From Sediminibacterium sp. (lineage in GTDB: Bacteria > Bacteroidota > Bacteroidia > Chitinophagales > Chitinophagaceae): DNA of 64,000 bases. Shown one piece after another: positions 18,288 to 26,278 of the stretch. The notes beneath the pieces are model-generated. The model was not told the DNA's origin and ran no database searches. It saw only the letters and a program-made list of their open reading frames with translations. The stretch's first letter is position 1. The number at the start of each line of letters is the position of its first letter. The stretch is taken from contig JBMSJE010000003.1 in the NCBI GenBank assembly GCA_049418605.1, forward strand, positions 2,590-66,589, given 5' to 3'. A program made the translations under genes and the position numbers.

Positions 18288-18292
18288 GTAGT

Positions 18293-18333
18293 AAAAATTT
18301 GCGGCAAAGGTACTTATAAGGTAGGGCTTTGCC
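18293..18333 (-). terminator. possible weak terminator or structured element between tyrA and the helicase gene
   Basis: Imperfect hairpin GGCAAAG...CTTTGCC (18303-18333), followed on the minus strand by GCAAATTTTT. The stem is imperfect and the U-run short. Confidence 0.35.
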
Positions 18334-18374
18334 TGTTTTTTATTTATTTTAAGCCTGTTTTTGACAAAGCTGGA

Positions 18375-20397: not shown

Positions 20398-21270
20398 CTA
20401 TCCTTTTTTCATGATGCCCTTTTGATAGACACCAAATATTTTAATATTATTTGTTAACACTGTTATTGAATCAAGCACTTGATCTAATTTTTTACGCTTG
20501 TCAAATTCCATGTCAGCAAAAAAACCATATTTAAAATTACTTCCAGGAATAGGCATACTTTGTAACTTGGTTAAGTTAACATCATGCTTTGCAATTTGCG
20601 TTAGCACTTTCGCCAATACCCCTTTTGTATGGTTTGTTTGAAAGTATATAGACGCTTTGTTCGCTTGTACATCGTCAATCACATCTACTGCACGTTCCAA
20701 TACCAAAAAGCGCGTAAAATTATTTTTTTGCGTTTGAATATCTGGCCCAATAATATCCAAATTAAAAAGTTCAGCAGCCAATTTACTAGCAACTGCTGCC
20801 ACATGTTTAGACCTGTGCTGCTGCACATGTTTTGCACTAAGTGCCGTATCTTCCGATTCTACCAATTTCCAATTGTTTTTTTCGAGGTAATCCAAACATT
20901 GCAAAAGTGCCATGGGATGACTGTGCACTTCTTTAATATCCCCTAATTGAACCCCCTTGTTAACGAGCAAATTTTGACTGATTGATAAGTACACTTCACC
21001 TGTTACTTTTAAGGAAGAGCGGAGTAATAAATTATAGTTGGGTAAAATACTACCAGCAATAGAATTTTCGATGGCCATCATGGCCCCCGCCGATTCTTTT
21101 TTATTTTCTGCTTTTTTTATGAGTGCGCTAAAGGTAGCACAGGGTACAACGTTTATGTCATGACCAAAAATAGTGCGCGCTGCTACCTGATGGAAGCTTC
21201 CTTCGTAACCCTGAATGGCAATACCCAATTCATTGACAGGCTTTCTTGTTATTTTATTTTTTGTTGGCAT
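20398..21270 (-). CDS. pheA: prephenate dehydratase
   Basis: PDT domain (IAIQGYEGSFH) plus C-terminal ACT domain. The ATG at 21270 is preferred because the upstream TTG start of the ORF track would run through the terminator U tract. Confidence 0.9.
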   Translation of the reverse strand: MPTKNKITRKPVNELGIAIQGYEGSFHQVAARTIFGHDINVVPCATFSALIKKAENKKESAGAMMAIENSIAGSILPNYNLLLRSSLKVTGEVYLSISQNLLVNKGVQLGDIKEVHSHPMALLQCLDYLEKNNWKLVESEDTALSAKHVQQHRSKHVAAVASKLAAELFNLDIIGPDIQTQKNNFTRFLVLERAVDVIDDVQANKASIYFQTNHTKGVLAKVLTQIAKHDVNLTKLQSMPIPGSNFKYGFFADMEFDKRKKLDQVLDSITVLTNNIKIFGVYQKGIMKKG

Positions 21271-21276
21271 ATACTT

Positions 21277-21306
21277 AAAAAAAATCCCGGCCAATTGGCC
21301 GGGATT
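21277..21306 (-). terminator. attenuator terminator immediately upstream of pheA
   Basis: Minus strand reads AAUCCCGGCC-AAUU-GGCCGGGAUU (21306-21283), running into U8 (21284-21277). It ends 6 nt before the pheA ATG. Confidence 0.85.
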
Positions 21307-21324
21307 GTATGTAAAATTTTTTTG

Positions 21325-21414
21325 TTACGCTAATACATATAATACCCGGCTCCTTTTGGTAAAGAAGTAATAATAATAGAAACTAAACCAGGTATTTGAC
21401 ATTATTTGTTTCAT
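21325..21414 (-). CDS. aromatic amino acid leader peptide (29 codons): MKQIMSNTWFSFYYYYFFTKRSRVLYVLA
   Basis: Hand-translated from the minus strand; it is under the 60-aa ORF-track cut-off. Nine of ten consecutive codons are Trp/Phe/Tyr. The ORF is embedded in alternative pairing segments upstream of the pheA terminator. The true start could be the second ATG at 21402. Confidence 0.7.
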   Translation of the reverse strand: MKQIMSNTWFSFYYYYFFTKRSRVLYVLA

Positions 21415-21421
21415 TGTATTT

Positions 21422-21453
21422 CAAATATAGGTAAATAAAACACGAAAAAACAA
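21422..21453 (-). promoter_or_regulatory. Bacteroidetes-type promoter for the pheA leader
   Basis: TTG (21453-21451), 21-nt spacer, TATATTTG (21429-21422), matching the -33 TTG / -7 TAnnTTTG consensus. The -7 box ends 7 nt before the leader ATG. Confidence 0.5.
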
Positions 21454-21998: not shown

Positions 21999-22565
21999 GT
22001 GAAAGCTACGAGTAACGAACAAGCATTATTAAAGGGGCTAGCAGCCAATGATTCTGTCATTATTGAACAACTCTACAAAGAGAATTTCAGTACCATACAG
22101 GCCTTTATTTTGGCTAACAATGGCTCTTATGACGATGCAAAAGACGTTTTTCAGGAAGCAATGATCACCCTCTACGAAAAAGCACAAACGGGCTCATTTG
22201 TTTTAACCTGTCAAATTAGAACCTACGTTTACTCGGTTTGTCGCAGATTATGGCTTAAAAAGTTGCAACAACAGGGTCGCTTTTCGCAACCAGTTGACAA
22301 TTTGGAAGAAACCTTATCTGTCGATGATGACCTTGAAGAACACGCTAAACACGACGCCGCTTTTGCTATTATGGACCGGGCACTTAAAAGCTTAGGCGAA
22401 CCTTGCAAAAGTCTATTAGAAGGCTACTACCTTCAAAAAATGGACATGCAAGCTTTGGCATCGGAATTTGGATATACCAACGCCGACAACGCCAAAAACC
22501 AAAAGTATAAATGTTTAATGCGCCTTAAAAAATTGTTTTTCGCGCAATATAATATTGGAGAGTAA
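21999..22565 (+). CDS. ECF-type RNA polymerase sigma-70 family factor
   Basis: 188 aa. Region 2 (DDAKDVFQEAMITLYEK...YVYSVCRRLWLKKL) and region 4 HTH (MDMQALASEFGYTNADNAKNQKYKCLMRLKK). GTG start. Confidence 0.9.
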   Translation: MKATSNEQALLKGLAANDSVIIEQLYKENFSTIQAFILANNGSYDDAKDVFQEAMITLYEKAQTGSFVLTCQIRTYVYSVCRRLWLKKLQQQGRFSQPVDNLEETLSVDDDLEEHAKHDAAFAIMDRALKSLGEPCKSLLEGYYLQKMDMQALASEFGYTNADNAKNQKYKCLMRLKKLFFAQYNIGE

Positions 22566-22584
22566 GCAACATAGAATAAGTAAC

Positions 22585-23691
22585 ATGGAAGATTTATTAT
22601 TACTAGAAACCATTGAAAAGTACCTGAGCAACCAAATGGATGCACAGGAAAAAACGGCTTTTGAGTTGGTTCGTAAAAATACGCCCGAAATTGACCAAAT
22701 GGTGGTTGAACATGCCATGTTCTTGCAGCAAATAAACCAGTATAGCGCCATTAAATCTATCAAACAAACACTTGCTCAAACGCATCAAAATTTATTGGAG
22801 CGTGGTGAAATATCCAATACAAGTGAGGTTTCAAGAACTGCACAAGTTGTACAATTATTTCACAAGTATAAAAGAGTGGCAGCTATCGCTGCATCTGTTG
22901 GCGGTGTAATCGCATTATTTATAAGTGGTCTTGCATTATTTATTTCTCCGGTTAGCCACAACAACCAAATCCAACAATTAAGCAACGATATCGCTGCAAT
23001 TAAAAAGAGCCAACAATACCAAGGCAAACTTATTAATGAGGTAAAAAGTAAATTACCTGCTGGTGTTAAATTTATTAGTGGTGGTTCAGGATTTTTAATT
23101 GACGCCAAGGGTTTTATAATTACCAACGCACACGTCATTAAAGGAACTGGTGCTATAGTAGTTGACAACAACGGTAAAGAGTTTGTGGCTCAAATTGCAC
23201 TCATCGATCAAGAAAAAGATTTAGCCATTTTAAAAATTGATGACGCAGATTTTACTTCTAAGAAATCACTTCCATATTCGATTCGCAAATCAACCACCGA
23301 TTTAGGGGAAGAAATATTTACCCTTGGTTATCCAAGAAACGAAATCGTATACGGAACGGGGTATTTAAGTGCTAGAAGCGGTTACGAAGGAGATTCACTC
23401 TCCTATCAATTGCAAATGAGTGCCAATCCTGGCAACTCGGGTGCACCGGTATTTGATAATGCTGGCGAAGTTATTGGGGTATTGAGCACTAGAGAAGCAC
23501 AATTAGAAGGTGTAGTCTTTGCGCTAAAATCAAATAATATTTACAAAGTAGTAAGTGATTACAACGCTAGCAATGAAGGCAGTAAAGATATTAAAATTTC
23601 TACCCGCTCAAATATTAGTAGGATGTCACGCAAAAAGCAAATTGCAACACTTGAATCTTGCGTGTATTATGTAAAGTCTTTTGATAAATAA
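22585..23691 (+). CDS. membrane-anchored anti-sigma-like domain fused to a trypsin-like (S1) serine protease
   Basis: ATG at 22585, 19 nt after the sigma stop. About 100-aa cytoplasmic helical N-domain (LIEKYL-type), one TM (VAAIAASVGGVIALFISGLALFI), and a protease triad context (TNAHV, DLAILK, GNSGAPVF). No PDZ domain was evident. Confidence 0.8.
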   Translation: MEDLLLLETIEKYLSNQMDAQEKTAFELVRKNTPEIDQMVVEHAMFLQQINQYSAIKSIKQTLAQTHQNLLERGEISNTSEVSRTAQVVQLFHKYKRVAAIAASVGGVIALFISGLALFISPVSHNNQIQQLSNDIAAIKKSQQYQGKLINEVKSKLPAGVKFISGGSGFLIDAKGFIITNAHVIKGTGAIVVDNNGKEFVAQIALIDQEKDLAILKIDDADFTSKKSLPYSIRKSTTDLGEEIFTLGYPRNEIVYGTGYLSARSGYEGDSLSYQLQMSANPGNSGAPVFDNAGEVIGVLSTREAQLEGVVFALKSNNIYKVVSDYNASNEGSKDIKISTRSNISRMSRKKQIATLESCVYYVKSFDK

Positions 23692-25564: not shown

Positions 25565-26278
25565 TTAATCTTTTAAAGAAGCACCAAAAATTTGCTCAAA
25601 ATTTTTCTTGACTAAGTCTTTTACTTCCTCCATAGATACTGGATGACCTAGTTCTTTTTGCAAAGACGTAACCTGCTTATCAGGTATCCCGCAAGGAACA
25701 ATATTATTAAAATAAGCCAAATCGGTATTGACGTTTAAAGCAAATCCGTGCATAGTAACCCAACGGCTACATTTAATGCCCATTGCACAAATTTTGCGTG
25801 CTAATTTTTTATTATCAGGATCTAACCAAACACCCGTTTCACCTGCACTTCTACCTGCCACAACACCATAATGTGCAAGCGTTAAAATAATCACCTCTTC
25901 CAAACTTCTTAAATACCAACCCAGGTCGGTCTTAAATTTTTCCAAATCCAAAATGGGATAACCCACCAACTGCTCAGGGCCATGGAATGTGATATCTCCG
26001 CCTCTATTGATATGAAAATAGTCGATACCATTGGCTTCCATAAAGGCAGTTGTCATGAGCACATTAGCCGCATTGCCATTTTTACCTAATGTATATACGG
26101 GGGGATGCTCTACAAATAACAAATGATTTTTTGTAGGCCACTCCGTTACTGGAATTTCGGTTTGATTCCGGTAACTCGCCTTAATAGCCGAGTTGGCACT
26201 CAATAAAGATTCTTGATACGCCCAAACCTCTTTGTACTTGCGCGTACCCAAGTCCTCAAAAAAAACTTCCTGCTGCAT
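25565..26278 (-). CDS. lipB: lipoyl(octanoyl) transferase
   Basis: 237 aa. RGGDITFHGPEQLVGYPI and KICAMGIK motifs. Confidence 0.95.
   Translation of the reverse strand: MQQEVFFEDLGTRKYKEVWAYQESLLSANSAIKASYRNQTEIPVTEWPTKNHLLFVEHPPVYTLGKNGNAANVLMTTAFMEANGIDYFHINRGGDITFHGPEQLVGYPILDLEKFKTDLGWYLRSLEEVIILTLAHYGVVAGRSAGETGVWLDPDNKKLARKICAMGIKCSRWVTMHGFALNVNTDLAYFNNIVPCGIPDKQVTSLQKELGHPVSMEEVKDLVKKNFEQIFGASLKD

Follow-up and report, generated by a model that had tools for sequence, protein, structure and literature searches.

How is transcription into pheA controlled in this Sediminibacterium sp., and which genes would share that control? The stretch analysed here (the window; 64,000 nt of contig JBMSJE010000003.1, assembly GCA_049418605.1) carries pheA on its minus strand as the first of several aromatic amino acid biosynthesis genes, and the DNA just 5' of pheA holds a small open reading frame (ORF) crowded with aromatic codons, followed by a GC-rich hairpin. 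A sequence-only reading had taken this arrangement for a leader-peptide attenuator. We give that interpretation a probability of roughly 0.85: the evidence argues for a ribosome-mediated leader-peptide transcription attenuator that would sense charged tRNA-Phe and tRNA-Tyr and control the pheA operon. The coordinates proposed for its segments, terminator, U8 tract, promoter and pheA ATG all match the sequence. The parts are as follows.

21453..21451, minus strand: candidate -33 element TTG of a Bacteroidota sigma-A promoter, located in the sequence, with a 21-nt spacer to the -7 box.
21429..21422, minus strand: -7 box TATATTTG (consensus TAnnTTTG) of the predicted leader/pheA promoter, ending 7 nt before the leader ATG.
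21414..21325, minus strand: leader ORF of 29 codons plus stop, MKQIMSNTWFSFYYYYFFTKRSRVLYVLA (sequence reading and ORF list), with its stop codon at 21327-21325.
21396-21388, minus strand: segment 1, AAUACCUGG, long-range partner of segment 2 in the window lineage (minimum free energy fold).
21390-21361, minus strand: regulatory codon run, codons 9-18, W F S F Y Y Y Y F F (sequence).
21367-21361 with 21356-21350, minus strand: hairpin P, in which the last aromatic codons (CUUCUUU) pair with AAAGGAG (RNAalifold consensus of the leader subgroup S described below).
21349-21341, minus strand: segment 2, CCGGGUAUU (sequence).
21350-21334, minus strand: 5' half of the antiterminator, segment 2 plus an extension, GCCGGG-U-AUU-A-UAUGUA (folding).
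21313-21298, minus strand: 3' half of the antiterminator, UACAUA-C-AAU-CCCGGC, overlapping segment 3 (folding).
21306-21298, minus strand: segment 3.
21292-21283, minus strand: segment 4.
21306-21283, minus strand: intrinsic terminator AAUCCCGGCC-AAUU-GGCCGGGAUU, with U8 at 21284-21277 (terminator scan).
21270-20398, minus strand: pheA, prephenate dehydratase (NCBIfam/Pfam), the first gene under the proposed control.

The ORF has the 29 codons that had been read from the window, and nine of the ten codons from W9 to F18 are aromatic. Is it peculiar to this contig? From a PheA alignment we took 80 Chitinophagaceae pheA loci in GTDB genomes, and codon and structure statistics were calculated on the 74 non-redundant leaders among the fetched loci. 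An equivalent small ORF with a run of Phe and Tyr (F/Y) codons, together with an antiterminator and a terminator with a CCCGG core, lies 5' of pheA in all 80 loci, and its in-frame stop always falls ahead of the terminator. The leader starts with ATG and has 6-10 aromatic residues within a stretch of ten in 78 of the 80; in the remaining two the element begins with GTG (L043) or has a TTG or truncated start (L022). Leader ORF length ranges from 17 to 30 codons across the loci, and neither the N-terminus nor the rest of the peptide outside the F/Y run is conserved. A scan of all intergenic gaps in the 64-kb window found no leader ORF with an amino-acid run besides that of pheA.

The codons of the run carry a signal that depends on reading frame. 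Summed over the 74 leaders, Phe accounts for 382 codons of the run, Tyr for 241 and Trp for 23; 90% of the run is aromatic in frame 0 versus 24% and 31% in the other frames, and Tyr codons are nearly exclusive to frame 0 (241 versus 1 and 22). The run is free of in-frame stops, the changes within it are mainly F<->Y exchanges or synonymous, and loci differ freely in how F, Y, S and G are ordered. Every leader has at least three Phe codons and at least one Tyr codon. The sequence-only reading had described a mixed Trp/Phe/Tyr run, of which the Phe/Tyr part is conserved and the Trp part is not: Trp occurs in the run of only 23 of the 74 leaders, and the position of the window's UGG, which there belongs to the segment 1 pairing, is CGA, GGU or missing in other leaders. 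Because Trp is confined to so few leaders and the UGG position is not kept, the sensed amino acids would be Phe and Tyr, and Trp is ruled out as a signal. Joint sensing of Phe and Tyr fits an operon that encodes pheA and tyrA together.

Codon choice within the runs of the 74 leaders differs from that of the window's ORFs. C-ending codons are favoured, TTC making up 34% of Phe codons (12% in window ORFs) and TAC 43% of Tyr codons (30% in window ORFs), an excess for which the run-end hairpin, through its CUUCU/CUACU arm, accounts in part. Long U-rich runs might favour frameshifting, which is reported for E. coli pheL (PMC3082878).

The peptide downstream of the run has a recurrent tail (RSRVVFAKA / RPGMLLLK), and a functional C-terminal peptide was considered as its cause. 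Six leaders rule this out (L021, L044, L046, L055, L074 and L080, located at ~2800-2990 of each locus): their ORFs end at or before segment 2, after 17-21 codons, and their RNA segments are kept. Because these six ORFs stop so early, the kept tail in the others is best explained by constraint on the RNA rather than by a function of the peptide. The terminating ribosome in these six loci would sit on segment 2 itself, nearer the geometry of the E. coli trp leader than the window is.

The hairpin next to pheA has the make-up of an intrinsic terminator. As DNA the scan reports AATCCCGGCC-AATT-GGCCGGGATT at 21306-21283, with ten pairs (seven of them GC) and then a T-run; this T8 (21284-21277) ends 6 nt ahead of the pheA ATG at 21270. 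A U-tract and a GC-rich stem are always present across the loci, and the mean free energy (dG) of the terminator over the 74 leaders is -18.1 kcal/mol. In a MAFFT alignment of the 74 sequences the helix between segments 3 and 4 (3:4) is 98.8% paired and seven of its eight pairs show compensatory changes, a result that none of 500 shuffles reaches and that compares with 26-58% pairing in slid controls.

Distance to pheA varies. In the window 12 nt lie between the hairpin and the pheA start and 6 nt between the U-tract and that start; spacing is similar (6-13 nt) in L001, L023 and L040, and most other loci have 20-210 nt between hairpin and pheA. Where the spacing is short, as in the window and these three loci, refolding of read-through RNA into the terminator hairpin could also affect initiation of pheA translation.

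What could keep the terminator from forming? When segment 4 is left out, the window RNA folds into a 2:3 antiterminator hairpin (21350-21298; -17.7 kcal/mol, z = -3.7). The sequence-only reading had foreseen such a pairing, which is present and covaries, but as a shorter helix than the bipartite hairpin found here. The same test was applied leader by leader, the folded RNA beginning where the run ends and stopping after the terminator 5' arm, so that segment 4 was omitted. That arm pairs in every one of the 74 leaders, its partner being a post-run segment 55-77 nt from the ATG, with a mean dG of -17.3 kcal/mol and a mean z of -3.8 against shuffles of the upstream part (z < -2 in 93%). RNAalifold on the full 74-sequence alignment returned the terminator alone. 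Because the alignment sets two leader subfamilies one column apart near segment 2, truncated regions were handled per subfamily and with alignment-free tests. On truncated leaders RNAalifold recovered GCCGGG:CCCGGC in subgroup S, to which the window belongs, and an inner UGUUG:CAACA helix plus an outer helix in subgroup R. The 2:3 pairs are formed in 90.6% of cases in subgroup S (6/11 compensatory) and 87.1% in subgroup R (10/16 compensatory), with 0/500 shuffles reaching either value and slid controls in both subgroups at 31-54%.

Three segments also change together within single loci, as in L010 (CCGAG/CUCGG/CCGAG), L080 (GAGGAU/AUCCUC/GAGGAU) and L040 (GCGGGAU/AUCCCGC/GCGGGAU). A swap test that needs no alignment compared duplex energies of segments from the same locus with those from different loci. 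Own-locus pairs were the more stable for 2:3 (-19.1 versus -15.8 kcal/mol), 1:2 (-15.7 versus -12.5 kcal/mol) and 3:4 (-18.5 versus -14.4 kcal/mol), with 0/5000 permutations in each case. The minimum free energy fold of 21271-21420 contains the 1:2 and 3:4 helices as they had been drawn (-36 kcal/mol, z = -3.65, 0/200 shuffles as stable). Both conformers of the sequence-only reading were thus recovered, 1:2/3:4 in this fold and 2:3 in the RNA lacking segment 4, and the alignment of related pheA leaders that it had called for bears it out in the conserved run and the compensatory stem changes.

The distances between the parts are compatible with a ribosome footprint. The last run codon and the start of segment 2 are a median of 11 nt apart (exactly 11 in 39 of the 74 leaders), roughly as far as a ribosome extends past its A site. 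Measured from the start of segment 2, the stop codon follows after a median of 23 nt, so a terminating ribosome would cover most of the antiterminator 5' half, and a further median of 23 nt separates the stop codon from the terminator. The original interpretation as leader-peptide attenuation is thus supported by its conservation in 80 of 80 loci, by the frame-specific codons, by covariation of the 2:3 and 3:4 helices and by this spacing.

In the mechanism that we infer, which spans leader ORF translation, the transcription start site (TSS), ribosome stalling and conditional termination, the sigma-A promoter would fire and, with the -7 box 7 nt from the leader AUG, a ribosome would load very close to the 5' end. 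With ample Phe and Tyr it would translate the whole F/Y run, reach the stop codon (21327-21325) and cover most of the antiterminator 5' half; behind the terminating ribosome, hairpin P and segment 1 would hold segment 2, segment 3 would pair with segment 4, and RNA polymerase would terminate at the U-tract (21284-21277). When Phe-tRNA or Tyr-tRNA is scarce, the ribosome would stall in codons 9-18 and melt or block hairpin P and 1:2. Segment 2 would remain free, because it starts ~11 nt past the run, where the front of the stalled ribosome would be. It could then capture segment 3 as soon as this is transcribed and before segment 4 exists (antiterminator 21350-21298), the terminator would be prevented, and transcription would read through into pheA, the aminotransferase gene and tyrA, and probably on to the shikimate genes.

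Several results weigh against this interpretation. The 9-bp 1:2 helix drawn in the sequence-only reading (21396-21388 with 21349-21341) does occur in the minimum free energy fold of the window, but in subgroup S it is 69.6% paired with little covariation, and the per-sequence z for 1:2 averages only -1.1; the helix appears to be lineage-specific. RNAalifold found no consensus helix in the 5' part of subgroup R, where per-sequence folds of many members pair AAAGCAUAYUUYGG with CCGGGARUGCUU. The alignments point to hairpin P rather than the drawn 1:2 helix as the conserved sequestering element: it directly abuts segment 2, stacks under 1:2, and in subgroup S is 96.4% paired with compensatory changes in three of five pairs. 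Because 1:2 is weakly conserved, the anti-antiterminator logic rests mainly on hairpin P and on sterics. The energetics are also less simple than a two-state switch. In folds constrained by a ribosome mask, a model that lets helices close around the ribosome as is physically impossible, the terminator state is favoured by -12.8 kcal/mol without a ribosome and by ~-6 kcal/mol with one on the first or middle run codons. Equilibrium folding with the mask thus never favours the antiterminator, and the kinetics of co-transcriptional folding are required. Equilibrium switching was rejected in favour of kinetic competition, since the antiterminator is never the more stable state in the masked folds; with the terminator state always the equilibrium state, the decision must be kinetic. 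Classical attenuators likewise decide kinetically. In a permissive Rfam scan the best match, Phe_leader (RF01859) at 21403-21277, scores 33.8 bits (E = 0.0016), below the gathering score of 55, and its alignment is driven by the terminator and the U-rich codons. The predicted 5' untranslated region (5' UTR) of ~3 nt is moreover an unusual context for initiation, and a second in-frame ATG (21402) could be the true start in the window.

Could the same features be explained without a translating ribosome? The ORF might be untranslated, with the U-rich stretch and hairpins forming an RNA-only switch (binding a protein, a tRNA or a metabolite) or a leaky constitutive terminator that lowers pheA expression. 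The alternative helices are indeed kept at the RNA level, the C-terminal part of the peptide is RNA-constrained, and Bacteroidota lack Shine-Dalgarno-led initiation, which together with the ~3-nt 5' UTR would make translation less obvious. Against an RNA element of this kind stand Phe/Tyr enrichment that is strictly frame-specific (90% versus 24-31%; Tyr 241 versus 1 and 22), run substitutions that are mostly F<->Y or synonymous, a start codon at a fixed distance from the promoter with an in-frame stop before the terminator in 80 of 80 loci, and a run-segment 2 spacing that agrees with the ribosome footprint; the leader also matches no Rfam riboswitch or T-box model. We regard this account as very unlikely. 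Slightly less credible still is a stand-alone small gene or small RNA with its own terminator, pheA using a separate promoter. Promoter, ORF and strong terminator would suffice for a small transcription unit that is complete in itself; in some loci 100-210 nt separate the terminator from pheA, which leaves space for a promoter; and attenuator RNAs with functions in trans are described in other bacteria, rnTrpL/peTrpL being an example. In the window, however, the gap between U-tract and pheA ATG is 6 nt, so that it leaves no space for a pheA promoter; the element is linked to pheA in 80 of 80 genomes, a covarying antiterminator would be purposeless in an isolated gene, and the peptide is not conserved outside the F/Y run, its length varying from 17 to 30 aa.

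Other accounts keep the translated leader and change what it does. Control might be mainly translational, the 3:4 hairpin, 12 nt before the pheA AUG, occluding the unstructured, A/U-rich initiation region on which ribosomes of Bacteroidota depend and leader translation toggling that of pheA. The 6-13 nt between hairpin or U-tract and the pheA start in the window, L001, L023 and L040 would suit this, as would the terminator state being the equilibrium structure of the full-length RNA. Most loci, however, place the hairpin 20-210 nt from pheA and always with a U-tract and a GC-rich stem; because these distant hairpins are still terminator-like, occlusion would be at most an addition in a few lineages, and as the main mode of control it is about as improbable as the stand-alone gene. 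The nascent aromatic peptide might instead act as an arrest peptide of the TnaC or SecM kind, answering free Phe or Tyr rather than tRNA charging. Arrest peptides that sense free amino acids exist in other bacteria, and this leader is extremely aromatic and hydrophobic. It has no conserved motif beyond its F/Y composition, its residue order and length vary, and a biosynthetic operon would be regulated in the wrong direction, since a ribosome stalled at high Phe/Tyr would leave segment 2 exposed and the genes induced. We consider this the least probable of the alternatives. Attenuation by leader translation, with tRNA charging as the signal, is the reading that we retain.

Where would the ribosome board? 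In 71 of 78 loci an exact TAnnTTTG ends 3-10 nt (mode 7) 5' of the leader ATG, where ~0.6% per locus would be expected by chance, and 56 of these 71 have a TTG 15-24 nt (mode 19-20) upstream of it. The sigma-A -7 box occupies positions -12..-5 in a study of F. psychrophilum (Guérin et al. 2021, PMC9723704); with the box so placed, the TSS of the window is predicted at ~21417, the 5' UTR at ~3 nt, and the leader AUG at about +1 to +6 across loci. The leader ORF is thus probably near-leaderless. The sequence-only reading had left open a near-leaderless start or one at the second ATG; the short distance from box to ATG that points to a near-leaderless start recurs in these 71 of 78 loci, and this distance speaks for 21414, the first ATG, as the start that is conserved, the closest relative (L001) having no second ATG.

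Of the two leaders that lack an ATG, that of L043 (~2836-2925) has its GTG 4 nt after the -7 box (TACTTTTG-ttac-GTG). That of L022 (~860-995) lacks its N-terminal part and the -7 box; TTG may serve as its start, or its sequence reflects an artefact of assembly or rearrangement.

Short 5' UTRs are infrequent in the Bacteroidota for which figures are at hand: leaderless mRNAs make up 5.5% in F. psychrophilum (PMC9723704), and 5' UTRs below 10 nt ~3.7% in B. thetaiotaomicron. In the window, the genes starting at 26278 (minus strand), 40875 (plus strand) and 45362 (plus strand) have an exact TAnnTTTG ending 4-7 nt before the ATG; they are 3 of the 12 window genes that carry an exact box in the 150 nt upstream. 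In this genome, mRNAs that are leaderless or nearly so may be far more frequent than the 4-6% reported for Bacteroides and Flavobacterium. Because three other window genes share the 4-7 nt spacing, the case for leaderless placement as a trait specific to the leader is weakened. We offer as tentative, at somewhat less than even odds, the further proposal that the Chitinophagaceae attenuator relies on leaderless (5'-end-dependent, probably 70S) initiation and, with its bipartite antiterminator and a run-end hairpin in place of the classical segment 1, represents a distinct, phylum-specific family of multivalent Phe+Tyr attenuators.

Has such an element been described before? At gathering thresholds Rfam matched a tRNA as the sole hit in the whole window, the Bacteroid-trp (RF01692) and Leu/phe leader (RF01743) models had no match at E <= 10, and riboswitch or T-box models did not match the leader region. 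An exact look-up of seven leader peptides, that of the window included, found none in a collection of 15 billion proteins. With no peptide in the collection and no Rfam model at threshold, the element is absent from annotations, as had been expected. The closest precedent is the 5' region of pheA-aspC3 in F. psychrophilum (THC0290_N_0195), listed as a leader-peptide attenuation element (Guérin et al. 2021, PMC9723704, SI Appendix D9, Table S7), with a mapped TSS and conditional read-through. That 170-nt region ends ACAATCCCGTC-TTTTAG-GCGGGATTTTTTTTT (PMC9723704). Both systems belong to the same phylum and place pheA before an aminotransferase gene; the F. psychrophilum leader of 27 aa (MNTNNTFYSNNSFYFYWNIGRDCYMVI) has mixed Phe/Tyr(/Trp) codons, its terminator (ACAAUCCCG...CGGGAUUUUUUUUU) shares the AAUCCCG core, and the published sequence, folded here, has a long antiterminator (GGGAUUGU... 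with ...ACAAUCCC). They differ in that the F. psychrophilum leader ORF has a 20-nt 5' UTR as against the ~3 nt predicted here, that the aromatic run is denser here (nine of ten codons), and that the operon here appears to add tyrA and shikimate-pathway genes. An nhmmer profile of the Chitinophagaceae leaders matches the F. psychrophilum leader marginally (E = 6e-5, with high compositional bias), so common descent is only plausible. Secondary nhmmer matches were considered as extra copies and rejected, being reverse-strand matches to the palindromic terminator. A pheA leader-peptide attenuator is already noted in another Bacteroidota class, and the Chitinophagaceae family (80 of 80 genomes) adds a new member to this known kind.

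The window's element also resembles the E. coli pheL-pheA leader (RF01859) in its short Phe-rich leader ORF, its 1:2, 2:3 and 3:4 pairings, its intrinsic terminator right before pheA and, as proposed, the favouring of the antiterminator by stalling. Unlike that leader, which senses Phe only and is Shine-Dalgarno-led, the present one would be multivalent for Phe and Tyr and is predicted to be near-leaderless with a Bacteroidota sigma-A promoter. The E. coli pheA gene encodes a chorismate mutase/prephenate dehydratase fusion and is transcribed alone, with tyrA under TyrR, whereas pheA, the aminotransferase gene and tyrA are co-linear here. The Bacteroid-trp leader (RF01692), a predicted Bacteroidota leader-peptide attenuator (Weinberg et al. 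2010, PMC2864571), is alike in having an aromatic amino-acid operon (trpB/trpE) downstream, tandem regulatory codons and a terminator-like hairpin, and unlike in that its tandem codons are UGG in a trp context; the window has one UGG, in a pheA context. Leaderless leader-peptide attenuators are known from Deinococcus deserti (PMC4007540) and from the polycysteine short ORFs of mycobacteria (bioRxiv 10.1101/834739). There a regulatory short ORF lies at or ~1 nt from the transcript 5' end, much as is predicted here, before amino-acid biosynthesis or tRNA-synthetase genes; the phyla, amino acids and promoters are different, leaderless mRNAs are very common in those organisms, and their TSSs were mapped, whereas the TSS here is placed from the -7 box position.

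How far downstream would the control reach? After pheA (290 aa from the start at 21270, a length shared by nearly all close homologues), whose homologues place the organism in Chitinophagaceae near Sediminibacterium, the following minus-strand genes were annotated with NCBIfam/Pfam.

20395-19226, minus strand: class-I aminotransferase.
19214-18375, minus strand: tyrA, prephenate dehydrogenase.
18287-16560, minus strand: DEAD-box RNA helicase (CshA/DbpA-like).
16536-15451, minus strand: DAHP synthase/chorismate mutase.
15422-14397, minus strand: aroB.
14400-13123, minus strand: aroA.
13098-12091, minus strand: aroC, chorismate synthase.

An operon of Phe and Tyr branch enzymes, as had been proposed, is thus present in pheA, the aminotransferase gene and tyrA, with the shikimate genes co-linear. 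On the minus strand downstream of the leader, only two weak terminator matches, both inside ORFs (6-7 pairs, 3 GC each), precede a 12-pair hairpin at 9726-9699. The helicase gene sits between tyrA and the DAHP synthase/chorismate mutase gene, after an 87-nt gap following tyrA (18288-18374), and has a -7 box (TACCTTTG) 17 nt upstream of its ATG. Because the helicase gene owns such a box, only pheA, the aminotransferase gene and tyrA can be assigned to the leader with security; read-through may extend to the shikimate genes, and the distal ones may also be served by an internal promoter upstream of the helicase.

Just upstream of the pheA leader promoter lies an ORF of 58 aa (MKKVFAILAVVAFVACNSGENKEATADTTAVDTTATVSMDTTAVDTTAAAADTAKAAH; 21849-21673, minus strand) with a signal-peptide/lipobox-like N-terminus and Thr/Ala/Asp-rich repeats (TTAVDTTA); a Pfam search of it gave no match. 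A strong terminator (21573-21548, minus strand) closes this lipoprotein-like ORF, and for that reason the leader-pheA unit must own a promoter. Divergent from this region are the gene of an ECF-type (extracytoplasmic function) sigma factor (21999-22565, plus strand) and, overlapping it by 11 nt at its start, a gene (22555-23691, plus strand) whose product has a C-terminal trypsin-like protease domain of the HtrA/DegP family.

Very probably, then, this element switches the Phe/Tyr genes on only when Phe or Tyr runs short. The mechanism is classical and leaves the textbook picture unchanged. What it adds is a concrete regulatory unit for aromatic amino acid biosynthesis in Chitinophagaceae, abundant freshwater and soil Bacteroidota whose gene regulation is almost unstudied and whose pheA leader annotation pipelines miss. 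The 74-sequence alignment with its covarying helices could serve as the seed of an Rfam family and help to annotate operons and regulons better; a distinct family of multivalent Phe+Tyr attenuators, if that is what these leaders are, has no Rfam entry yet. An AUG kept across loci at a few nucleotides from the predicted TSS also gives a handle on the coupling of ribosome and RNA polymerase where initiation is not led by a Shine-Dalgarno sequence. If loading is indeed leaderless, the sensing ribosome would board as the RNA emerges, and transcription-translation coupling would be solved without Shine-Dalgarno pairing.

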